A stretch of 64,000 bases of DNA. Origin: Bythopirellula sp. (lineage in GTDB: Bacteria; Planctomycetota; Planctomycetia; Pirellulales; Lacipirellulaceae). The translations under genes and the position numbers were made by a program. The notes beneath the pieces are model-generated. The model saw nothing but the letters and a program-made list of their open reading frames with translations. It had not been told where the DNA came from and did not search any database. The DNA is taken from assembly GCA_965216565.1 (NCBI GenBank), contig OZ244170.1, positions 3,040,001 to 3,104,000 on the forward strand, given 5' to 3'. This document shows positions 3,904-14,938 of the stretch, one piece after another. Positions within the stretch are counted from its first letter, which is position 1. Each line of letters opens with the position of its first letter.

Positions 3904-5019
3904 TTAAACCGTTACCATCGTCTCGGGCATCTCGCGCAAGAACAGATAAACCATGACCACCAAGCCGATTGCTTCGGGAACTAGCTTATCCAGTGCAGGG
4001 CTCCAGCCTAGTTGGCTACTGAGATAAACGAACGTAGCCGCGGTGAGCACCGAGACGCCAAACAGGAATGTCGCAGAAAGGCTCACGACATCCTTGCCGG
4101 TCCCGCGCAGGTCGCGTAGTTCACGAAAAAACTGATACACGACCAAGGCAAAGATGATCGTGGTACAGATGGAATATTCTGCCAGCGCCGGCACTGCGAT
4201 AAAGGCGTCGTACAGCCCGTGGGCGATTACCGCCAGTCCGAACGTGGCCAGTGCATGGGGCCCCCAACCACTGGGGTTACGCAGGCCCCGATAACAGGCC
4301 AACCCGACTAGCCCTGTCAATGACATATGCATGGGGTTAGCCGTCAAGAAGCGACCCAGCGCATCGGAACCGGCTGATCTCGAAAAGTTGATGCTGTTTT
4401 CCTCCAGTGCAAAACCCAAGCCAACGCACGCTGAGACAATTAACGCAACAATCTCGCAACGCATTCGCACAAGAAGAGGCATGAGAGGAAGCAAACAGAG
4501 GAGCTTCGCTAACTCTTCGCGCAAGCCAACTCCAGCGATGTAGTGCCGCAGCCCACCGACCAACGACGAGCTGTCTTTCAAACCCCATCGAAACTCTTGC
4601 CAGTAAATAAAAAAGAACGTGGGCCAGACACTCAATACGCCTAGCGCTACGCCGGCCAGTGCAAGCCATGTCCGAGAGCCGAGCCAACTCTGCGGTCGCA
4701 TCACTTGCCAAAGAAACGCCAACCAGCAACAGCCGGTGATCGCCGCAAGTGCCAGGGGGCCTGTCTTGCCGACTGTTTCCCACAATCTGGACGGAATCTT
4801 CCACCACAGCTCCTGCCATTGCCCGGCTGATGCCATTTCATCGAGTGCGTCCCAGGGGTTGGCTGTGTCCTCAACTTTCGCCATCTCCGACCCTCGCTCC
4901 ACCGGCGAACCCTGGACGACATAGCCGATCACAACCCCGAGGCCGATAATGATCAACACCATCCGCCAGAGGAATGCCGGTTGGCGGGATTTTGTCTCGA
5001 GCTTTCGTTTCCAATTCAT
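3904..5019 (-). CDS. PrsW-family intramembrane glutamic/metalloprotease
   Basis: REELAK, GLGFALEEN, H..LTG, HGLYD motifs; multi-TM; start taken at MNWKRK. Confidence 0.82.
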   Translation of the reverse strand: MNWKRKLETKSRQPAFLWRMVLIIIGLGVVIGYVVQGSPVERGSEMAKVEDTANPWDALDEMASAGQWQELWWKIPSRLWETVGKTGPLALAAITGCCWLAFLWQVMRPQSWLGSRTWLALAGVALGVLSVWPTFFFIYWQEFRWGLKDSSSLVGGLRHYIAGVGLREELAKLLCLLPLMPLLVRMRCEIVALIVSACVGLGFALEENSINFSRSAGSDALGRFLTANPMHMSLTGLVGLACYRGLRNPSGWGPHALATFGLAVIAHGLYDAFIAVPALAEYSICTTIIFALVVYQFFRELRDLRGTGKDVVSLSATFLFGVSVLTAATFVYLSSQLGWSPALDKLVPEAIGLVVMVYLFLREMPETMVTV

Positions 5020-5286
5020 AGCAGCAACTGCCTGAGATCGTTTTGCTTTGCGGAATAGCAGTAGTGTAGCAAGGCCCGGCCAACAGATTGAGGCTTCGTG
5101 CCTAGAGACATCCGCCGGGGGATATTTCTCGGTTTCCGCCCTCCAGCAGAATCTGATATAGTGTGCGGCATTGGAGTACATCCGTTCAGATTCAGGCTGG
5201 AGACTTCGAGGCGGGGAGGCCTTGAGGAGAGTCAGCCCCCCCGAACCCCACAAAGCCTACAGCCTCAAAGCCTCCAGCCTAAAAAA

Positions 5287-6384
5287 ATGTCCCGCGAACC
5301 CATACTCTCCACCGACGACGTGCAGGCGAAGGCAGCTACCGAGCAAGCCGCGTCGCTGAGCTTGGAAGAGGATCAAGCGCTGCGTCCGCAACGCATGGAG
5401 GAGATGGTTGGCCAACGGGAAGTTTACGAACGGTTGAAGATCGCTGTCGACGCCGCCCAAATTCGCGAAGAACCTCTGGGACATGTTCTGCTCGATGGGC
5501 CACCGGGTCTTGGCAAAACAACATTCGCCACTTGCATTCCACGAGCCCTCAACGTGCCGTTGCAGATTGCCAGCGGGGCTGCGTTGGCCGCTCCCAAAGA
5601 CTTGCTGCCCTACCTCAGCAATGCCGAGGGCGGTTCGGTTCTATTTATCGACGAGATTCATCGTCTGCCCAAGGCCGTCGAAGAATTTATGTACCCGGCA
5701 ATGGAAGATTTTCGCATCGACATTACGCTTGGCGAAGGAGTCAGCGCGCGAACGATCAATATGAAGCTGCAGCCGTTCACCATGATCGGCGCCACCACCC
5801 GCAGCGGTTTACTCTCCGCCCCTTTACGCGATCGCTTTCAAGTCCGGGAGCATTTGGAATTCTATTCGCACGACGAACTTACTGAGATCGTCCGCCGCAA
5901 TGCCAAGAAACTACGGATAGCCATCGACGACGATGCAGCGCTCAAGATTGCTCATTGCAGTCGCGGCACGCCCCGGGTGGCGAACAATCGGTTGCGGTGG
6001 GTCCGCGACTATGCCACCAGTCGAGCCGATGGCGAGATCACCTTGGCCGTTGCCAACGAAGCACTCGGCATGCTGGGCGTCGACCAACTCGGCCTCGACG
6101 GCCAGGACCGTAAGTACCTGGAGACCATCCTCCGCGTATTCCACGGCGGACCCGTGGGCGTGGAAGCGGTTGCCCATACACTTAATACGGCGACCGACAC
6201 GCTGACCGACGAAGTGGAGCCTTTCCTCTTGCGAGCAGAACTTGTGATCCGCACGCCGCGTGGTCGCAAACTCACGACTGCCGGCTATCACCACCTGGGA
6301 GCCGAACCTCCGGAACGTCCCGGTGGCCCTCATTTCAATGCGGACTCTCAGCCAGAGTCTTCGGACCAGCCGCTGTTTGAGTAG
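5287..6384 (+). CDS. ruvB: Holliday junction helicase RuvB
   Basis: LRP, GPPGLGKTT Walker A, FIDEIHRL Walker B, GATTR.G.L..PLRDRF, RTPRGR. Confidence 0.97.
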   Translation: MSREPILSTDDVQAKAATEQAASLSLEEDQALRPQRMEEMVGQREVYERLKIAVDAAQIREEPLGHVLLDGPPGLGKTTFATCIPRALNVPLQIASGAALAAPKDLLPYLSNAEGGSVLFIDEIHRLPKAVEEFMYPAMEDFRIDITLGEGVSARTINMKLQPFTMIGATTRSGLLSAPLRDRFQVREHLEFYSHDELTEIVRRNAKKLRIAIDDDAALKIAHCSRGTPRVANNRLRWVRDYATSRADGEITLAVANEALGMLGVDQLGLDGQDRKYLETILRVFHGGPVGVEAVAHTLNTATDTLTDEVEPFLLRAELVIRTPRGRKLTTAGYHHLGAEPPERPGGPHFNADSQPESSDQPLFE

Positions 6385-7063
6385 GCGAGTCCCTCTGCCA
6401 AAGCCACACAAACACCGGCGCTAGGGCTAAGGCCGCCCATTGGTAGCCGGTGAGCCCGAACCAGAGCTCTACCTCGGGGCGAATGAATTCCGTCAGAAAT
6501 CGGTAGCACAGATAGGCCAAGATGTAGAGCTTAATTAGCTGGCCGCGAAACTGACCGCGCGAACGCAGCCAGGCAAGCACCAGCGCGGCAGTCAAATGAA
6601 ACGCTGTTTCGTAGAGCTGCGTTGGATGCCGGGGCTGCGAGTCGATTGCCGGAAAAACGATACCCCAGGGCAATTGGGTCGGCGTGCCATAGCAGCAACC
6701 ACCGACGAAGCAGGCCAGTCGGCCGATGCCTACTGCGACCGCTACCGGCACGGCGAACGAGTCGCCCGTCTTCACATGAATCCCCAGCGACCACTTGGCC
6801 ACTTCTACGCCAAAGTATCCGCCCACCAAACCACACAGAATCGTTTTGCCGTCGGAAAACCAAGCCATGCCGCTGAGCATGCCTTCCCAGTCGGCCAGCA
6901 CAAAAGGCAACTTAGCTCCCAGCATCGCTCCACAAAAGGCACCGAGCCCCACGCCCAGTTTCTCGCTCTTAGAGAGTGGCAGCGTCTGCTGCGAGCCACG
7001 GCTCAAATACACCCCCGCCCCAACGGCCAGCATCATGATCAATGTGTAGTAAGGAGTAAGCAT
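6335..7063 (-). CDS. Prolipoprotein diacylglyceryl transferase (Lgt) family paralog
   Basis: GRLACFVGGCCYG, LPWGIVF, HPTQLYE, YRFLTEFIR; GKTILCG in place of canonical GMSFHGG. Confidence 0.85.
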   Translation of the reverse strand: MLTPYYTLIMMLAVGAGVYLSRGSQQTLPLSKSEKLGVGLGAFCGAMLGAKLPFVLADWEGMLSGMAWFSDGKTILCGLVGGYFGVEVAKWSLGIHVKTGDSFAVPVAVAVGIGRLACFVGGCCYGTPTQLPWGIVFPAIDSQPRHPTQLYETAFHLTAALVLAWLRSRGQFRGQLIKLYILAYLCYRFLTEFIRPEVELWFGLTGYQWAALALAPVFVWLWQRDSPTQTAAGPKTLAESPH

Positions 7064-7068
7064 GGCAA

Positions 7069-8610
7069 TTAACTCATCGAAATCGCGGCCTGCTGCTTAG
7101 CCCCATCCACCAACGGAGGCAAAGGCACGTGCCCCTCGCGGTACAACACGTTGTAGGCAGAAAACGGAATCACATGCCCGCTCGGCAACACGTGATGGAC
7201 GCACGACTTCATCAACTGACGAACATCGAAGTTGTAGGCATCCATGAATGAGGTGGTGGTCACCCGGAACACATCCTCGGGGTCCAAGTCTTCGGCCATG
7301 GCCCGACGGAAGAAGTCTTCGCCAATGGCCAGCGACCGCTCGTCCGGAGGGGCGGAAGGCGAGCTTGCTCCAAGTCCCCCTCCCCGGGATGCGCCAGAGG
7401 CGGCTTCTTGGTCATTCGGATTATCCTTAACACCATCGATCTGCACCAGTTGCCCGTCACCACCACAACTGCCATCCGCACAGCAGGAGATCCGCGAAAG
7501 ATACTTGCTTACCAACACACTCGCCCGCTGCCGGTTAAAAGTAATCCGCCCCGCAAGCAGATCGAGATGGTTGGCCAAATCGACAAACCGGGCCAGCGGC
7601 AGAAAATCCTCGCCGCTGCGATACGCGTACGCCAGCGAATGACCATTGGGATGCGCACAAGGCAGCGGTGAGAAATCTGATTCCTGCCAGTAGCTAGGAG
7701 ATTGCTCGACTAGGTGGTGGAACACATCGGGAAACGTCACCCTTCGTTCCAATTCTGCGGGCAACACATATCGGCCCACATAAGTAGCCGGCTGGAAACT
7801 AACGCCCGTCACCCAAGGCCGACGCACGCCGAAATCGACGATCGGCCCAATCTGACCTTCATTCACCCCAGCCTGCAGTGTGCAAACCAGCGTCGTCCGC
7901 AGCCCCGCTTCGCCCAGCTTTTCGATCGCCTTCAGTTTGATCTCCAGCAACGACTCGCCGCGGAGTGCGAGCGAGCTATCTTCGTTCAGCCCATCGAACT
8001 GCAAATAGATTTCCGCGCGGTGCTTGAGCGCCGCCACTCGTTCCAGGAATTCTTGGTCGTGCGCTAGCCGGATCCCATTGGTATTGATCATCACAATGTC
8101 GATGGGCTGCGCGCAAGCGTACTCGAAGATTTCGAAAAAATTGGGATGGATCGTCGGTTCACCGCCGGAGAGTTGCAAAATCTCTGGCTGTCCCTCGACC
8201 TCCACCAGCCGATCGATCGCCCGCCGACATTCGTCCACAGTCAAATGATTCCCGCCCGGGCCGCTGGCCGCAAAGCACATGGGGCAATCGAGATTGCAGG
8301 CCGAGGTGATCTCCAACAACCCCAGACACGTGTGCTGCTCGTGTTCCGTGCAAAGCCCACAATCGAACGGGCAGCCCTGCGTTGGTTCTACACCAAACTT
8401 CTCCGGCACCTTACCTGGCAAACTATAATCGTGCCGATCGAACCACCGCGCATCGCTACAAACAAAATCCTCCCGTGGCCCATGCTCGCGGCAATGTTTA
8501 CGGAAATACACGCGCCCCTCACGCTCCACAATCTTCGCCGGCAACAACTCCAAGCACTCCGGACAGAGACTTTGTGTGGAGCCGAGGTACGTATAGTCGC
8601 GGTATTTCAT
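7069..8610 (-). CDS. Radical SAM protein, tetraether synthase (Tes/GDGT-MAS, MJ0619)-like
   Basis: N-terminal CPEC...C.EHG metal site, GCPFDCGLC.EH..HTC, CNLDCPMC rSAM motif, SGGEPT, YLQFDG, C-terminal FMDAYNFD..SC.H...G..IPF..YN. Confidence 0.85.
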   Translation of the reverse strand: MKYRDYTYLGSTQSLCPECLELLPAKIVEREGRVYFRKHCREHGPREDFVCSDARWFDRHDYSLPGKVPEKFGVEPTQGCPFDCGLCTEHEQHTCLGLLEITSACNLDCPMCFAASGPGGNHLTVDECRRAIDRLVEVEGQPEILQLSGGEPTIHPNFFEIFEYACAQPIDIVMINTNGIRLAHDQEFLERVAALKHRAEIYLQFDGLNEDSSLALRGESLLEIKLKAIEKLGEAGLRTTLVCTLQAGVNEGQIGPIVDFGVRRPWVTGVSFQPATYVGRYVLPAELERRVTFPDVFHHLVEQSPSYWQESDFSPLPCAHPNGHSLAYAYRSGEDFLPLARFVDLANHLDLLAGRITFNRQRASVLVSKYLSRISCCADGSCGGDGQLVQIDGVKDNPNDQEAASGASRGGGLGASSPSAPPDERSLAIGEDFFRRAMAEDLDPEDVFRVTTTSFMDAYNFDVRQLMKSCVHHVLPSGHVIPFSAYNVLYREGHVPLPPLVDGAKQQAAISMS

Positions 8611-8858
8611 TCTTCGTCCTTGGGCTTTCTAAAGAATTTTTGGACTTTATTGGCTACGAACAACGCAACGACTGCACCAAGAGGAAACCCAAGAAACAAG
8701 CCGTATCCGATTGTGATTCCGGCATGATCCGCAGGGCCAGGTTTGGCAACTTCGACCGCAATTCTTGTGACCGAGTGACAGGTCGCTAAAAAAGTAATAT
8801 AAGCAGAGAATCCAGCCAGCAACCAAACTCCGATCGATTTCAGTACTTCACGATTCAT
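8607..8858 (-). CDS. Small 2-TM membrane protein with AYITFLATC motif
   Basis: ATGA overlap with rSAM start; two hydrophobic helices; basic C-terminal tail. Confidence 0.7.
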   Translation of the reverse strand: MNREVLKSIGVWLLAGFSAYITFLATCHSVTRIAVEVAKPGPADHAGITIGYGLFLGFPLGAVVALFVANKVQKFFRKPKDEE

Positions 8859-8892
8859 ACGGAATTCTTTCTCTGCGCTCTACGGTTATATC

Positions 8893-9459
8893 CTAACCCT
8901 TCTCCGCCCGTTTCTTCCTAAAGTGACGAATCAGAGCAAAGATAGAGAGCCCTCCAAAGGCACACATGCCGAGGCCCCAGATTAAATATTCCGTACCGCC
9001 ATGCCTGCTGTCTGTGGAAACCAGCAAAAGACATACACCGCAGAAAGTGGCAAACGCCGCCGCGCAAACCAGGACCGCAATCACCATGGCAGCCGCGAAG
9101 GAACTCGCGAACAGCCCCACCTTTTGCGCTGGCGATACCTTTTGCCCCCGCGCCTCGCTCTCGCGCACATTGCGAATCGTACGCACCAGCACCGGCACTG
9201 CCAGTATGCAGACCCAAAAGCCTAAACCAGGGCTAATCGCCACAATGCCGAATATCACCGACGCCAGGGTTAGCAGCAGCATCGTCGTTCCCAGCGAGAA
9301 TGAAAACTTATCTGGTGCTGACGCCGCCGACTCCGTGGTGACCACCGGCGCACCCAACTCCGTGGTCAAGTCTTGACCGCACAGCCAACACTTAATTTGG
9401 CCCTCTGTTAACTCACCCCAACATTGCGGGCAGACGAGCTTGGTGGATTCCGTAGCCAC
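8893..9459 (-). CDS. Zinc-ribbon membrane protein with AFATFCGVC motif
   Basis: CPQC..CWLCG ribbon, four hydrophobic segments; GTG start at 9459 with AGGA upstream. Confidence 0.72.
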   Translation of the reverse strand: MATESTKLVCPQCWGELTEGQIKCWLCGQDLTTELGAPVVTTESAASAPDKFSFSLGTTMLLLTLASVIFGIVAISPGLGFWVCILAVPVLVRTIRNVRESEARGQKVSPAQKVGLFASSFAAAMVIAVLVCAAAFATFCGVCLLLVSTDSRHGGTEYLIWGLGMCAFGGLSIFALIRHFRKKRAEKG

Positions 9460-9524
9460 TTGTGAATTCCTGTGAATAGTGTTTTTTTCGTACCAAGCTG
9501 CATCGATTCGATTAACCAAAACCC

Positions 9525-10004
9525 TCAGTGCACACCCTTAAGTATTTGAGCACAAACCACCAAGAAAGCGATAAACGCGCAAGCAACAACTAGGCCCAAG
9601 ACGCCAATCGTGATAACGACAGCTTTCAAGCCACCAGAAAAATCCTTGAGTAGCGTTTGACGCGAAACCGGCTTGCCTTGCAAAAAGCCAACAACGGTTC
9701 TTATCACAAGAGGTAAGAAAGCGGCTGTCCCAATCACTCCCAGTAGCGGAGTGATTCGGTAAAGCCCCCCCATGACAAGAACGGATACCAATAGTACGAC
9801 GATGTGTGTTCTGGAAACTTCCTTCTCGGTGTGCTCCAGCCTGGAAGCTGAAGATTCGATAACACGTACCGGGATCTCCGCTGAGGTTTGTTCCCTCGCT
9901 CCCTGCCCCGCTCCGCAAAGCCAGCAGTTCGCTTGGCCAGCGAGAAGCTTCGCCCCGCATTGGGGGCAGAGGGGATGGTTGGACACCACTGTGTTCTCAT
10001 TCAT
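9525..10004 (-). CDS. Zinc-ribbon membrane protein with AFIAFLVVC motif (paralog of neighbour)
   Basis: CPQC..CWLCG ribbon, three TM helices; ATGA overlap with upstream gene. Confidence 0.72.
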   Translation of the reverse strand: MNENTVVSNHPLCPQCGAKLLAGQANCWLCGAGQGAREQTSAEIPVRVIESSASRLEHTEKEVSRTHIVVLLVSVLVMGGLYRITPLLGVIGTAAFLPLVIRTVVGFLQGKPVSRQTLLKDFSGGLKAVVITIGVLGLVVACAFIAFLVVCAQILKGVH

Positions 10005-10708
10005 GACCGAAGCTTCTCATGAAAGTCCGATCGCTGAGCAAACTCTTCCGCCATGAAACGCACGCGGCGGACCGCTTGGCCAATGATGATCCCCGTGAGA
10101 GCCAACGCCGCAAGTGTCATCAGTTGATGGTACCGCGGCACGCTGATATCAAGCGTCGCCTCGCGGCCAAACGTTGCCGGCCATTTGGCAACGCCTAACA
10201 CGCAGAGGTAGCCAACCATGCCACCAATTGTTGCCAGTCGAACTAGCTTCAGATCGAATCGCAACGCCGTCATAGCAACGATCAGAAAATACCCCGCCAC
10301 CAATGCACTACGTGGCCCCGAGGCAATCGAGAGCATCCCGGTAAGAAAAACCAAATCACCTGCCGTCGACGCGTAAGGAAGCCACGCGGGGAAATGCCGC
10401 ATTTGCAAACAGATATGCACCGCCGCGGCCAGCATCACCCACGCCAGCGCCAATAAGGTAACTAGGGTATGAAATCGCTCGTCGACTACTGCTTCTTTGG
10501 AAAGCTGCAACACCCCCCAATTCGGCAACTTCCCCGCGGTGCCAAAATAGTGCCACAGATGGATTAAGTAGAAGATGCCAACCGAGGCGATCCGCAGCAG
10601 GTTCACCCGGGCTTCGCCAGCGTATTGCTGCCAGCGTTGCGTGATGTACCAGGACCGATCGGCCGCGGGGCTGGGGCGAGAAGGATTGGAAGAGATATCG
10701 GTGGCCAT
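10001..10708 (-). CDS. Hypothetical multi-pass membrane protein
   Basis: About six hydrophobic helices; apparent first gene of the minus-strand operon. Confidence 0.72.
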   Translation of the reverse strand: MATDISSNPSRPSPAADRSWYITQRWQQYAGEARVNLLRIASVGIFYLIHLWHYFGTAGKLPNWGVLQLSKEAVVDERFHTLVTLLALAWVMLAAAVHICLQMRHFPAWLPYASTAGDLVFLTGMLSIASGPRSALVAGYFLIVAMTALRFDLKLVRLATIGGMVGYLCVLGVAKWPATFGREATLDISVPRYHQLMTLAALALTGIIIGQAVRRVRFMAEEFAQRSDFHEKLRS

Positions 10709-10866: not shown

Positions 10867-11046
10867 ATGGCCGTCCCTAAAAGAAAACATTCGAACTCCC
10901 GCAGCGGCAAGCGCCGCAGTCACGATCGGATTTCAGCAAGACAACTGCAAAATTGCACGAAGTGCGGTCAACCTACCCCCACGCACGTAGCTTGCCCCAA
11001 CTGTGGCAACTACATGGGCCGCACCGTCGTCGAAGCGGAAGAGTAA
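10867..11046 (+). CDS. rpmF: 50S ribosomal protein L32 (missing from ORF track, 59 aa)
   Basis: Translated by hand: MAVPKRKHSNSRSGKRRSHD...CTKCG...HVACPNCGNY; directly upstream of fab genes. Confidence 0.95.
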   Translation: MAVPKRKHSNSRSGKRRSHDRISARQLQNCTKCGQPTPTHVACPNCGNYMGRTVVEAEE

Positions 11047-11168
11047 ACCTCCAGCCCGGTGGTACGCCACGGCTGTCCTACTTCCCAGACATAGGGTCCA
11101 CAGGCGCGGTCTGCAGTCGAATCAATCCAAGCGACTGGCCAACCGGGCGCTTCCCTCCTGGTATCACC

Positions 11169-12080
11169 ATGCCTAAAACTGCTTTCTTATTTCCTGGCCA
11201 AGGCGCTCAAACCGTCGGCATGGGTGCCGAACTGGCTAGCTCCAACTCTGCTGCCAAAGAGCTGTTCGATCGCGCGGAGAAAATCCTCGGCTACGATCTG
11301 CTCGATGTCTGCACCAATGGCCCCGCCGAAAAACTGAACTCTACCGTCTACAGCCAACCGGCACTGTTCGTCTGCAGCTTGGCGGCATTGGAACAACTTC
11401 GACAAGAGTCGCCCGAGCTTGTGCAAAGCTGCCACGCCACCGCGGGGCTCAGCCTGGGCGAGTACACGTCGCTGGTGTTTGCCGAAGCTATCGATTTCGA
11501 ATCGGGGCTCAAGCTCGTGCAAACACGGGGTCGCGCCATGCAAGACGCGGCGGATGCCACGCCTAGTTCTATGGTCAGCATCCTCGGCATGGAACGCGAG
11601 CAAGTTGAAAAACTCTGCGACGATGCCCGCGAGGAAGAAATCCTCCAACTGGCCAACATGCTTTGCCCGGGCAACATTGTTGTCTCTGGCAATACGTCGG
11701 CCTGCGAGCGTGTGACCAAACTAGCCGAGGACGCCAGAGCGATGAAGGTGATTCCGCTGGCCGTCGCCGGTGCGTTCCACACCCCACTCATGCAGTCGGC
11801 CGTCGAACGACTTTCCGCTGCATTAACCGAGGTTTCCTTGCAGGAACCTCGTGTGCCGGTGATCTCCAACGTCGACGCCCAACCGCACACCGACCCCACA
11901 GAAATTCGCGACCTATTAGTTCGTCAGGTAGTTAGCCCCGTGCTGTGGGAAGATTCCATGCGGTGGCTGATCGACCAATACAGTGTAGAAGAATGTTACG
12001 AAATCGGCCCGGGACGTGTGCTTCGCGGCCTGCTCAAACGAATCAACCGCAAGCTACCCTGTCAAAGCGTAGCGGCATAA
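11169..12080 (+). CDS. fabD: Malonyl-CoA:ACP transacylase
   Basis: FLFPGQGAQ, GLSLGEY, GAFHT, EIGPG. Confidence 0.95.
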   Translation: MPKTAFLFPGQGAQTVGMGAELASSNSAAKELFDRAEKILGYDLLDVCTNGPAEKLNSTVYSQPALFVCSLAALEQLRQESPELVQSCHATAGLSLGEYTSLVFAEAIDFESGLKLVQTRGRAMQDAADATPSSMVSILGMEREQVEKLCDDAREEEILQLANMLCPGNIVVSGNTSACERVTKLAEDARAMKVIPLAVAGAFHTPLMQSAVERLSAALTEVSLQEPRVPVISNVDAQPHTDPTEIRDLLVRQVVSPVLWEDSMRWLIDQYSVEECYEIGPGRVLRGLLKRINRKLPCQSVAA

Positions 12081-12112
12081 TTACCACGGTTAAGGACGAC
12101 GTTATACAAGAG

Positions 12113-12202
12113 TTCCTCTCGCCTTTGGGGAGAGATTAAGTGAAGGGTTGGACCACGATAGAATCAACCCTCCCCTAACCCCTCCCTTTCAAGGGAGGGG
12201 GA
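12113..12202. repeat. CCCTCCCC/GGGGAGGG palindromic intergenic element (family C; also 33412-33448 and 47771-47864)
   Basis: Nested hairpins such as CCCTCCC-TTTCAA-GGGAGGG; related sequences at two other loci. Confidence 0.65.
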
Positions 12203-12309
12203 CTCGACTTGGCCTACCGGACAGAGTTGCCTTACCATACTGAACCAGTAAGGCACCGGTGACAAACCAGAACGAATCTCAAGAAAAAAACCAAACTTGG
12301 AAAACAATC

Positions 12310-13080
12310 ATGGCCGACAAAACTCCCCGCAGAATTAAAGTTGATCTCAGTGGCCAAACGGCACTGGTAACGGGTGCTTCACGAGGTATCGGCAAAGCGA
12401 TTGCCCTGGCACTTGGTGAGGCTGGTGCTAAGGTCGCCTGCGTCGCGCGAAACGAAGAGAAACTGCGCGAGACGGCAGACGCCATCACTTCCGCCGGAGG
12501 AACCGCTGTTATCTACGCGTGCGACGTCACCGACTCGGCCGCCGTCCAAAAAGTTGCCGACGCGGTGATGGAAGATTGGGGCCAACTCGATATTGTTGTG
12601 AACAATGCTGGGATCACTCGCGATACATTGATTCCTCGCATGAGTGACGAAGAGTGGGACGACGTCATAGCCACTAACCTGCGTTCGGTGTTCCTCTTCA
12701 CACGTGCCGCGACCCAAGTGATGATGCGACAGCGGAGCGGTCGGATCATCAATATTTCCAGCGTCTCGGGAATCATGGGTAACCCAGGCCAGTCGAACTA
12801 CTCGGCCTCGAAGGCGGGAATCATTGGCTTTACCCAAACTGTGGCCCGCGAGATGGCCGGTCGCAAAGTGACGGTCAATGCCATCTGCCCCGGCTTCATC
12901 GCAACAGAAATGACCGATGCCCTGGGCCCCGCTGTGCAAGACGAAGTCAAGAAAAGGGTCCCTGCGAAGCGTCTGGGAGAGTCTAACGAGATCGCCGATG
13001 CGGTGCTGTATTTGGCCAGCGACTCTGCGGCTTATATGACAGGCCAGATCGTCACGATCGACGGCGGCCTAACCGCTTAG
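12310..13080 (+). CDS. fabG: 3-oxoacyl-ACP reductase
   Basis: TGASRGIG, NNAGITRD, YSASK; fab cluster context. Confidence 0.95.
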   Translation: MADKTPRRIKVDLSGQTALVTGASRGIGKAIALALGEAGAKVACVARNEEKLRETADAITSAGGTAVIYACDVTDSAAVQKVADAVMEDWGQLDIVVNNAGITRDTLIPRMSDEEWDDVIATNLRSVFLFTRAATQVMMRQRSGRIINISSVSGIMGNPGQSNYSASKAGIIGFTQTVAREMAGRKVTVNAICPGFIATEMTDALGPAVQDEVKKRVPAKRLGESNEIADAVLYLASDSAAYMTGQIVTIDGGLTA

Positions 13081-13304
13081 CCAATAGGAATTTGCAGCAA
13101 CAGGGCCCGCGAGAGTCCGTCTAGACAATATCTCGCAAAAGCTATATCTTAACCACCTTCGCGAAACGGCTCTATTGTGAAGAGCATGCATACAGTGAAC
13201 TGGTTGGCGGGACTGGCGATAAGATTGAATGCCAGCTTTGTCCAACCCAACCAGATTTTACAACGTCATAACTAAATTTGTGCACTAGAAGGAGGACCCT
13301 CCCT

Positions 13305-13538
13305 GTGGCCTCAGTAATGGAAAGAGTAACGGACATCGTGTCCGAACAATTGGGCGTCGACAAAGACAAGATCAGCGCAGACACATCCTTTGTGAACGAT
13401 CTGGGTGCCGACTCGCTCGACACCGTCGAATTGGTCATGGAACTTGAAGAAGAATTCGACGTGAACATCCCGGACGAAGAGGCCGAAAAAATTCAGACCG
13501 TAGGCCAAGCCGTGTCGTTTATCGAAGGCCAGTCCTAA
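13305..13538 (+). CDS. acpP: Acyl carrier protein
   Basis: [23 protein letters not shown] before GTG 13305. Confidence 0.96.
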
Positions 13539-13702
13539 GCTGTCCTTTGCAAACTTCGTCGTCAACGAATGTCCCCGTTCTGGTGCCCTCGCGGCACAAG
13601 CAACTGGGCTTTCGATATCTCGTGGCACAGTCCAGTGCGCAGTTGCTCACCGGTGCCGTGCTGTCGGACCATCCAATTCGAAAGCGTCTCACCGAATAGC
13701 CG

Positions 13703-14938
13703 ATGAACCGCAGGATCGCTGTAACAGGTATTGGTGCAGTCACCTCACTCAGTTGCCAGGTCGACTCACTTTGGAAGAAACTTTTGGCCGGCGAGAGTGG
13801 TGTGCATGAGCTGCGCGCTTTCGACACGACCGATCATAAAGTTAACTTTGGTGGCGATATCCACGACTGGTCTACCGGCGAATACGTTTCAGCCAAAGAC
13901 GCGAAACGCATCGATCGCTTCACCCAGTTCGCCATGGTCGCTGGTATCGACGCGGTCACCGACTCGGGAATTGACTTCAGTACGCTCGATCCCTTCCGCT
14001 GCGGTGCAATTGTCGGCTCGGGCATTGGCGGCCTCAACGAAATAGAAACTCAAGAGCAACGACTCTTCAAGAAGGGCCCCGACAAGGTTTCGCCTTTCAC
14101 CATACCCAAGCTGATGCTCAACGCCGCGAGCGGCCACATTTCCATTCGCTATGGACTACGGGGCGTCAACTACGCCGTCGCTACTGCGTGTGCCAGTGCC
14201 ACGAACGCCATGGGCGAAGCGTTTCGAGCTATTCAGCGGGGCGATGCCGACGTGCTGGTCACCGGTGGTTCCGAAGCTGCCATCACTCCCATGGGCATGG
14301 CCGGCTTTGCCAATATGAAGGCCCTGTCGATGCGAAACGACAACCCCGCTGCCGCCAGCCGACCATTCGACGTCGATCGCGATGGCTTCGTGCTTTCCGA
14401 AGGTGCCGGGATCTTGGTCTTTGAAGAAATGGAATTGGCCCAGTCCCGCGGCGCAACCATCTATGGCGAAATCCTCGGCTATGGGGCTAGTGCCGACGCG
14501 GGACACATCACGCAACCCGACCCCGAAGGCAGCGGGGCCGCCCGTGCGATGAGCAATGCCCTTAGCGATGCCAAGCTGGAACCCTCGTCCGTCAATTACA
14601 TCAACGCCCATGGCACTAGCACCCCGTTGGGCGACAAAGCAGAAACCATCGCCATCAAACGCGTGTTTGAAGACCATGCTCACCAAATGAACATCTCCAG
14701 CACGAAGAGCCAGCTGGGACATTTGCTAGGAGCCAGCGGTGGTGTGGAACTGATCATTTCTCTCTTAGCGCTCAAACATCAAACAGCACCGCCCACAATC
14801 AATCTGGACAATCCAGACCCGGCGTGCGATCTGAACTACACTCCCAATACGCCACAAGAAATTGGCATCCAACGTGTGATGAGCAACAGCTTCGGCTTCG
14901 GCGGGCACAACGCCTCGATCGTGGCGGGCAGCGTTTAA
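13703..14938 (+). CDS. fabF: Beta-ketoacyl-ACP synthase II
   Basis: TACAS, NAHGTST, KSQLGH, SNSFGFGGHN. Confidence 0.96.
   Translation: MNRRIAVTGIGAVTSLSCQVDSLWKKLLAGESGVHELRAFDTTDHKVNFGGDIHDWSTGEYVSAKDAKRIDRFTQFAMVAGIDAVTDSGIDFSTLDPFRCGAIVGSGIGGLNEIETQEQRLFKKGPDKVSPFTIPKLMLNAASGHISIRYGLRGVNYAVATACASATNAMGEAFRAIQRGDADVLVTGGSEAAITPMGMAGFANMKALSMRNDNPAAASRPFDVDRDGFVLSEGAGILVFEEMELAQSRGATIYGEILGYGASADAGHITQPDPEGSGAARAMSNALSDAKLEPSSVNYINAHGTSTPLGDKAETIAIKRVFEDHAHQMNISSTKSQLGHLLGASGGVELIISLLALKHQTAPPTINLDNPDPACDLNYTPNTPQEIGIQRVMSNSFGFGGHNASIVAGSV

Follow-up and report, generated by a model that had tools for sequence, protein, structure and literature searches.

Why should an enzyme built like an archaeal tetraether synthase (Tes) be encoded beside a prolipoprotein diacylglyceryl transferase (Lgt)? 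The question is raised by six genes of the planctomycete Bythopirellula sp. (assembly GCA_965216565.1, contig OZ244170.1), which lie in the 64,000-nucleotide (nt) stretch analyzed here (positions 3,040,001 to 3,104,000 of the forward strand; this is the window, to which bare coordinates refer). These minus-strand open reading frames (ORFs), spanning 10708..6335 and named g1 to g6 in transcription order, encode a radical SAM enzyme with the fold of the Tes protein GDGT-MAS (g5), an Lgt paralog (g6), three small cysteine-bearing membrane proteins (g2-g4) and a further membrane protein (g1). The pairing of the radical SAM gene with an Lgt-like gene is strongly conserved, more than chance would give, and the small proteins that accompany it in related genomes form three unrelated, locus-specific families with one nearly invariant Cys each, a feature that is new. 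Our tentative reading, held with somewhat less than even confidence, is that the module is a dedicated lipidation system for g2-g4 with radical remodelling of the lipid tails, and the gene set suggests a so far undescribed route for attaching proteins to modified lipids of the membrane.

Six coupled genes on one strand

The module comprises the following genes:

10001..10708, minus strand: g1, a 235-residue (aa) polytopic membrane protein without a conserved Cys, for which a PilS-type, six-transmembrane (6TM)-like identity is a lead
9525..10004, minus strand: g2, a small membrane protein of 159 aa in which a zinc ribbon at the N-terminus (CPQC...CWLC) is followed by transmembrane helices
8893..9519, minus strand: g3, a 208-aa protein with a TTG start, a zinc ribbon, about five transmembrane helices and a basic C-terminal tail
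8607..8858, minus strand: g4, an 83-aa two-helix membrane protein, assigned by position and motif only
7069..8610, minus strand: g5, a 513-aa radical SAM enzyme of GDGT-MAS/Tes fold, from an Lgt-paired clade
6335..7063, minus strand: g6, a 242-aa Lgt paralog of seven helices with a much reduced head region

A preliminary description of this DNA had taken the six genes to be co-directional and tightly coupled, and direct reading bears out both the orientation and the coordinates first given. ATGA overlaps join the stop of g4 to the start of g5 (8610-8607) and mark the g1/g2 junction (10004-10001), while the spacer between g5 and g6 is only 5 nt (TAA ttgcc ATG). The host genome is a 5.2-Mb single contig, and its nearest relatives, as judged by g5, are labelled Planctomycetota, mostly Pirellulales-type records.

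The radical SAM and Lgt-like genes remain paired across planctomycetes

A scan of genome contigs yielded 247 relatives of g5, the best 80 of which (59-70% identity) served as close loci; these are mostly labelled Planctomycetota or planctomycete taxa, bar L015 and L022 (L-numbers are our handles for loci). An Lgt-like gene lies 27-408 nt downstream of the radical SAM gene in 63 of the 80. The rest divide into two loci where such a gene is about 4 kb off, nine with none in view and six that are too short, which puts the pairing at 63 of 74 informative close loci. Four of five examined genomes from the class with none in view hold a second, low-scoring LGT gene (91-113 bits) elsewhere.

The association extends well beyond these relatives. 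Sixty of 301 sampled genomes of the phylum contain a g5 relative at E <= 1e-40, only eight of them above 50% identity and the rest at 30-43%, and 20 planctomycete loci with homologs in this lower range were fetched as a diverged set. In 16 of them an Lgt-like ORF is adjacent on the same strand, the order being Lgt then radical SAM in 13 loci, the reverse of g5-g6, and radical SAM then Lgt in three. In another locus the Lgt-like ORF is weak and opposite in strand, and the remaining three have none, two of these being tandem arrays of radical SAM genes. All-against-all BLAST of 138 ORFs from the 20 diverged loci revealed no other recurrent neighbours beyond the Lgt-like gene and a small downstream protein. 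When a metagenome scan was instead centred on TrsS and Tes (80 loci, 47 with at least 1 kb on both sides), a single locus, L181, contained an Lgt-like ORF, and its radical SAM enzyme falls in the paired clade. The preliminary description had set store by this pairing, which is sustained in both the close and the diverged loci.

Both L015 and L022 are metagenome-assembled genome records titled 'uncultured Chitinophaga sp.' that carry the module; their radical SAM enzymes nest within the planctomycete clade, and the bin labels look wrong.

A GDGT-MAS fold outside the Tes clade

The motifs that the preliminary description ascribed to g5 are all present, namely a rubredoxin-like site (C16xxC19...C40xxH43), an N-cluster segment (C80PFDC84GLC87..H, with H90 and H93), the radical SAM (RS) cluster motif C105xxxC109xxC112 and a C-terminal C470-H...IPF..YN, and each is invariant, or close to it, among the 75 family members aligned. 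The ligands of the rubredoxin-like site, the N cluster and the RS cluster are invariant in 41-75 rows and are common to Tes representatives; passages of PMC9433317 name as GDGT-MAS ligands a rubredoxin-like 3Cys+His site, an N-terminal 3Cys+His [4Fe-4S] site and CxxxCxxC. Pfam finds Radical_SAM together with Zn_ribbon_HMPTM (PF23545, the MJ0619-type N-terminal zinc ribbon) in g5, and over residues 11-321 and 449-492 its sequence aligns with GDGT-MAS 7TOL at E 2e-70. The AlphaFold2 model, at a predicted local distance difference test (pLDDT) score of 82.9 with residues 376-418, including C376-C382, under 50, matches 7TOL over the whole chain (E 2.7e-39, TM score 0.74/0.77), the next fold being SkfB (6EFN) at 0.35. 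As modelled, g5 is thus a full-length structural homolog of MJ0619/GDGT-MAS with the complete four-domain fold.

Family membership is a different matter. The Tes model NF045702 gives g5 281.1 bits, below its cut-off of 450, and its best stretch covers only residues 12-321; the best-scoring NCBIfam model, TrsS (NF045646), gives 324.8 bits over residues 11-493, below a cut-off of 490. A 50%-identity representative library held 641 relatives of g5 at E <= 1e-30, and among the best 150 of these the 99 of 400-560 aa were scanned, with three passing the Tes cut-off, 22 that of TrsS and 74 neither. Trees were built with FastTree (142 rows) and IQ-TREE in quick mode (69 rows), both with Shimodaira-Hasegawa (SH)-like support. 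Tes and TrsS come together in one set at 98% in both trees (18 rows in IQ-TREE, where Tes and TrsS have 99% each), and the g5 family (100%) lies inside a separate set, which has 99% support and 66 rows with FastTree and 97% support and 32 rows with IQ-TREE. By these scores and trees g5 belongs to neither Tes nor TrsS. The Tes-family architecture that the preliminary description proposed is therefore upheld for the fold and lost for the family, as g5 scores under the Tes cut-off and sits outside the Tes clade in which it had been expected. Every paired radical SAM enzyme falls in the g5 clade, bar that of L089, whose weak Lgt-like ORF is on the opposite strand. Outside Planctomycetota, the nearest unnamed representatives come, by their source names, from Thermoleophilia, Fibrobacterota and Asgard archaea.

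The C-terminal cluster differs from that of Tes as well. The column of Met439, the labile ligand of this cluster, is Met in all three Tes and in 21 of 22 TrsS rows, but Thr in 14 of 14 g5-family rows. Two further columns hold Cys in 3/3 Tes and in 21/22 TrsS rows; in the g5 family they read S6 E3 C3 D1 (13 of the 14 rows tallied) and S10 C4, and both are Ser in g5. The family has Cys residues of its own, C318 (PLPCAHP) being invariant, C376 93% and C382 87% conserved, with C470 in addition; g5 retains four to five of the C-terminal Cys (C318, C376/377, C382 and C470). Because the catalytic cluster differs in this way, tail-to-tail coupling of the Tes kind is not to be assumed for g5.

Two of the family's own positions are marked out by their codons. 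In two orthologs of 47-50% identity, L194 and L195, the C382 column is an in-frame TGA (..CCAPGES-TGA-G..), located at L194:3353-3355 on the minus strand and, in the same alignment column, at approximately 4896-4898 of L195. A GC-rich hairpin begins 15 nt downstream of the TGA, and selA is found in both genomes as well as in the host genome of g1-g6. The L194 and L195 enzymes are probably selenoprotein forms of the g5 family. In a TrsS-like metagenome gene it is the C318 column that is an in-frame TGA (PPG-TGA-E, L119:5967-5969), so that across the superfamily two distinct Cys positions of the C-terminal domain alternate with probable selenocysteine (Sec), an alternation that suggests residues 318 and 382 are chemically important.

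Could g5 simply make lipids? In that case g5 and g6 would produce free membrane-spanning or macrocyclic glycerolipids, resembling glycerol dialkyl glycerol tetraethers of the branched kind (brGDGTs) or diabolic acid, with g6 as a lipid-binding or head-group-handling subunit and the small proteins as scaffolds or regulators. The whole GDGT-MAS fold of g5 favours a bulk-lipid pathway of this type, and passages in PMC8941075, PMC11868695 and PMC11214058 propose that membrane-spanning lipids come from bacterial Tes homologs, those of planctomycetes among them. On the other hand, archaeal Tes and TrsS-like loci manage without an Lgt-like neighbour (one in 80, as described above), and with the evidence from the small proteins and the genomic surroundings added below, we regard this explanation as unlikely, though worth keeping in view.

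Some Planctomycetota also carry tandem arrays of Tes-like radical SAM genes that have no Lgt-like neighbour (three copies in L096, two in L097). The array enzymes form a clade of their own (99%), apart from the paired ones, and it may be genes of this type that discussions of brGDGT-like lipids mean by 'Tes homologs'.

A second Lgt that keeps key transferase residues

Pfam LGT (PF01790) recognizes g6 at 115.2 bits against a cut-off of 24.9 (positions 13-238 of 240), while the TIGR00544 equivalog model gives it 57.8 bits and its cut-off of 118.9 is not reached. The genome contains two LGT matches, a 434-aa copy elsewhere at 195.9 bits and g6 at 113.7 bits, and lspA is likewise present elsewhere. 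Thus, g6 is a true paralog beside a housekeeping lgt, which is how the preliminary description had seen it. The housekeeping Lgt (L001:1441-2745; G000:C1 ~3690735-3692039) has an insertion of about 110 residues in its head region.

The AlphaFold2 model of g6 (pLDDT 89.8) has seven helices and almost no head domain, and its only significant match in the PDB is E. coli Lgt (5AZB, TM score 0.66). R143 and R239, reported as essential in E. coli Lgt in passages of PMC4728403, correspond to R115 and R188 of g6, which are invariant in 39 of 39 rows with the diverged partners included. The equivalents of Y235, H196-P197 and E202 are also invariant in these 39 rows, and that of E243 nearly so. The signature motif of the E. 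coli enzyme, G142-RLGNFINGELWG-154, contains N146 and E151; g6 reads GRLACFVGGCCYG, with Cys at both places, and there is no His at the place of the HGGL motif (E. coli H103). The housekeeping signature is GRIGCLLNGCCYG, in which N146 and E151 are likewise replaced by Cys, and because the housekeeping copy is alike in this respect the change may characterize the lineage instead of signalling lost function. On its conserved residues, g6 looks competent as a transferase. Its homologs offer no functional lead: of 2713, the best 120 share 68% identity or more and, where named, are ordinary Lgt.

The Cys residues of the g6 motif (C118, C123 and C124) are invariant in 62 of 62 sequences, and we considered them as a paralog-specific metal site replacing the ligands missing from the radical SAM enzyme. 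This idea was rejected, as the motif recurs in the housekeeping copy and the diverged partners retain its first Cys only. A prediction of the g5-g6 complex, with both proteins entered as alignments, returned scores of 0.00 and 0.00 and counts neither way.

The paralogy also bears on the simplest account of the locus, in which there is no joint function at all: g6 would be a second general transferase, the small ORFs unrelated to it and their adjacency inherited synteny. The form of the signature motif that g6 and the housekeeping copy share (GR.GC...GCCYG) can be cited in its favour, as can the nine close loci without an Lgt-like gene nearby. Yet the pairing outlasts both inversion of the gene order and divergence to 30-43% identity, the surrounding genes vary with no other neighbour recurring in the 20 diverged loci, and g6 is far under the equivalog cut-off of TIGR00544. 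We consider this account very improbable.

Small membrane proteins with a single conserved cysteine

To describe the remaining genes we gathered 131 same-strand ORFs (50-300 aa, at least two hydrophobic helices) beside 92 modules, and BLAST clustering resolved four recurrent groups. Group c0, to which g2 and g3 belong, combines a zinc ribbon with four to five helices and a basic tail (34 ORFs, 27 loci); c1 has an N-terminal NPY motif and two to three helices (33 ORFs, 23 loci); c2 is the g1 type (26 loci) and has no conserved Cys; and c3 consists of small proteins downstream of the radical SAM gene in diverged loci (nine ORFs, seven loci). Exactly one conserved Cys outside the ribbon is present in 32 of 34 c0 members, in 31 of 33 c1 members, the two misses being overlapping spurious ORFs, and in all nine of c3. 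In a 24-row c1 alignment at about 20% identity this Cys is the sole invariant column. None of g1-g4, nor representatives from other loci, matches a Pfam family over its cut-off, and the only NCBIfam match to g1-g4 is a chance-level S27ae ribbon match in g2.

In g2 the conserved residue is Cys151 (codon 9554-9552), near the end of the last helix (..FLVV-C-AQILKGVH), and in g3 it is Cys163 (codon 9033-9031), at the end of the penultimate helix (..FATFCGV-C-LLLVSTD). The N-terminus of g4 resembles a lipoprotein signal peptide ending F-L-A-T-C27 (codon 8780-8778), which is followed by a second helix; g4 has no detected sequence relatives, and other loci have a different small Cys-protein in its place. 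In general, the conserved Cys closes a hydrophobic stretch of roughly 20-24 residues that has basic residues before it and few after, with counts of Lys plus Arg in the 23 residues before the helix and the 15 after the Cys of 4.12 and 0.34 in c0, 2.23 and 0.45 in c1 and 1.89 and 0.11 in c3. Read by the positive-inside rule, these counts would leave the N-terminus on the cytoplasmic side and have the helix run from in to out, with the Cys at its outer end. The conserved Cys would then occupy the position of the lipobox Cys, where Lgt meets its acceptor. Its contexts are F-F-x-T-C-L/F-G in c1, F-L-L-N-A-A-C in c3, F-x-x-V/A/T-C in c0, L-A-T-C in g4 and L-V-V-C in g2, giving T, V or A at position -1 and F or N at -3. 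In c0 and c3, where the Cys is internal or near the C-terminus, cleavage of the LspA type is not expected.

The distribution of the small proteins is tied to the module. Groups c0 and c1 never occur in the same locus (25 versus 21 of 66 loci), two to three tandem copies are present in 16 loci, the only relative of g3 in its own genome is g2, and 10 of the 12 c1-profile matches from five other genomes are at the radical SAM locus. Being locus-specific, often tandem and provided with one invariant Cys, the small proteins look like substrates. The preliminary description had them as targets too and is supported to that extent; the Cys motifs it saw are not the site. Those motifs, CPxC...CWLC, belong to N-terminal cytoplasmic zinc ribbons and are absent from two of the three families. 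For the bulk-lipid pathway raised above these observations are awkward, as it leaves unexplained why a single Cys is conserved at the outer helix end in three unrelated families, and why the small proteins come in tandem copies and at a single locus.

If the small proteins are substrates, g5 itself might act on them. As a protein-directed maturase, g5 would modify them much as radical SAM peptide maturases modify their precursors, recognizing the cytoplasmic N-terminal zinc ribbon or NPY segment, and g6 would separately lipidate or anchor them, with no chemistry on lipid tails. The small genes are indeed the tightest neighbours of the radical SAM gene, with start/stop overlap, and in L010 a small gene stays beside it though the Lgt gene is gone; they are variable, tandemly multiplied and precursor-like, and the Sec/Cys alternation at C318 and C382 suggests that the enzyme's C-terminal domain bears a reactive thiol or selenol. 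Known peptide maturases, however, match only the core of g5 (TM score at most 0.37), no SPASM family or family for recognizing peptides that are synthesized on ribosomes and modified after translation (RiPPs) is among the full-length matches of g5 in the NCBIfam scan, and the one conserved feature of the small proteins lies across the membrane from a cytoplasmic Fe-S enzyme. A maturase of this sort appears improbable to us.

The remaining membrane protein, g1, has relatives upstream of the module in 26 related loci. Its Atlas score to Planctomycetota clusters is 0.98, and 37% of the members carry PF25323 (6TM_PilS), which we treat as a lead only. At L193:238-2226 a g1-type gene, a zinc-ribbon/transmembrane gene (..DCLRILGQH) and an Lgt-like gene are clustered away from the lone radical SAM gene of that genome.

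A proposed pathway from modified lipid to anchored protein

From the observed linkage, families, folds, residue conservation and locus specificity we infer the chemistry that follows. The proteins g2, g3 and g4 would insert with the N-terminus inside, which would put their single Cys at the outer helix end. At the cytoplasmic face, g5 would carry out radical C-H activation at the ends of lipid tails, most likely leading to C-C coupling, and g6, which keeps the arginines for phosphatidylglycerol binding and catalysis, would take a diacylglyceryl-type group off a phosphatidylglycerol donor and attach it to the Cys thiol without cleavage of a signal peptide. Of the two enzymes, g5 most likely acts first, on the donor phospholipid, after which g6 would move the modified lipid. 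Radical SAM enzymes work in the cytoplasm, and tails already anchored in the outer leaflet would be out of their reach. The active site of Lgt faces the outer leaflet according to passages of PMC4728403. The opposite order, lipidation and then cross-linking, was the one envisaged in the preliminary description and is the less likely one, because a cytoplasmic radical SAM enzyme could hardly reach outer-leaflet tails.

The outcome would be an uncleaved small membrane protein with a covalent bond to a lipid whose tails have been coupled, into either a macrocycle or a membrane-spanning form. Two phospholipids coupled tail to tail, each side carrying one head group, would yield a membrane-spanning anchor of the kind that the preliminary description had envisaged, and the alternative would be a macrocyclic diacylglycerol. 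The role of g1 would be that of an accessory 6TM protein present in part of the lineage. In its most specific form, the proposal is of a new protein lipidation in which a glycerolipid with pre-joined tails is placed on an internal Cys, and in which Cys or Sec at positions 318 and 382 of g5 replaces the Met-ligated cluster in the radical chemistry; we put this version forward as a rather doubtful possibility.

Several observations weigh against a dedicated lipidation system. On the enzyme side, the change of Met439 to Thr, together with the two Tes Cys columns that are mostly Ser in the g5 family, sets the catalytic C-terminal cluster apart from that of Tes, and the stretch with C376-C382 is modelled at a pLDDT under 50. 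By alignment, g6 is without equivalents of E. coli N146, E151 and H103. The acceptor contexts resemble the canonical lipobox [LVI][ASTVI][GAS]C and yet miss it, although position and flanking charge fit. A c0, c1 or c5 member (c5 being a c1-like cluster from two loci) is found in at least 47 of 66 close loci and not in all, several of the misses coming from the ORF length filter. In L020, L022, L056, L057, L059, L064 and L066 the radical SAM gene has neither partner beside it, and lineages of this type can equally be quoted for the bulk-lipid pathway. Finally, passages in PMC8941075 and PMC11868695 read bacterial Tes homologs as candidate enzymes for bulk brGDGTs.

Genomic surroundings

Divergent from g1 across a 158-nt spacer is the plus-strand run rpmF-fabD-fabG-acpP-fabF (10867-14938), with neither plsX nor fabH seen between rpmF and fabD in the ORF list of the window. 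On the other flank, ruvB converges on the module with an overlap at the end of g6. Upstream of ruvB, a minus-strand ORF, opposite to it in strand, encodes a 449-aa polytopic membrane protein (3904-5253). The fatty acid genes next to the module would suit a bulk-lipid pathway, but matches to ruvB, rpmF and fabD occur in only 7 of the 80 kept loci (L003, L004, L005, L009, L012, L013 and L019), so that the fab synteny is limited to the closest relatives.

Significance

In passages of PMC8941075 and PMC11868695, bacterial 'Tes homologs' are counted, in genomes as well as metagenomes, as markers of brGDGT producers for palaeoclimate proxies. A large planctomycete branch of such homologs is not Tes, having a different catalytic cluster and being tied to an Lgt paralog and small Cys-proteins, and, until tested, planctomycete hits of the g5 type should consequently not count as brGDGT potential. 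In lipoprotein biology, the module offers a concrete, testable case of a candidate substrate-dedicated Lgt paralog with a non-canonical acceptor motif, and in radical SAM enzymology an enzyme of GDGT-MAS fold with a rearranged ligand set in which Cys gives way to probable Sec in some relatives. Experiments are feasible because the module is present in records whose titles name cultured strains, Lacipirellula limnantheis I41 (L019) being one and Botrimarina colliarenosi Pla108 (L047) the other.

Comparison with known systems

The families represented in the module are known, but their combination and the substrate class were not found described. Within a limited literature collection, no paper was found that names both 'tetraether synthase' and 'prolipoprotein diacylglyceryl transferase', nor one in which radical SAM is connected with an Lgt homolog, paralog or Lgt-like gene. 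The passages found of the Haft preprint mention neither Lgt nor the g5 family, and NF045646 TrsS is named in one table row of PMC13188914. Bacterial Tes homologs, including planctomycete ones, figure as untested brGDGT candidates in passages of PMC8941075, PMC13159169, PMC11868695, PMC11214058 and PMC13459092.

Among characterized enzymes, Tes/GDGT-MAS (MJ0619; 7TOL, 7TOM; NF045702) is like g5 in that the C-terminal FMDAYNFD...IPF.YN block is kept. In contrast to Tes, g5 comes from a bacterium and stands beside an Lgt-like gene and genes for small Cys-proteins, a setting not met at the TrsS/Tes-like loci examined. TrsS (NF045646) shares with the g5 family C95 and often C318, and Sec/Cys alternation is seen in the C-terminal domain of both; the Met of Tes and its two C-terminal Cys are retained in TrsS, unlike in the g5 family.

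A further parallel is with radical SAM peptide maturases (SkfB 6EFN, sactisynthases), where small, variable and often tandem genes likewise stand beside a multi-cluster radical SAM enzyme. The likeness is one of mode of working, not of membership, and it extends to a conserved Cys as the chief invariant trait in the small proteins. Unlike peptide maturase systems, however, the small proteins here are integral to the membrane, their Cys is predicted to lie opposite the enzyme, and only the radical SAM core is similar. The pathway of E. coli Lgt (5AZB) and LspA resembles g6 in family, fold and the retained residues listed above, and the putative acceptor Cys of g6 is lipobox-like in place. What sets g6 apart from E. 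coli Lgt is that it is a shorter second copy, that its putative acceptors have a non-canonical motif and that it is genetically tied to a radical SAM enzyme.

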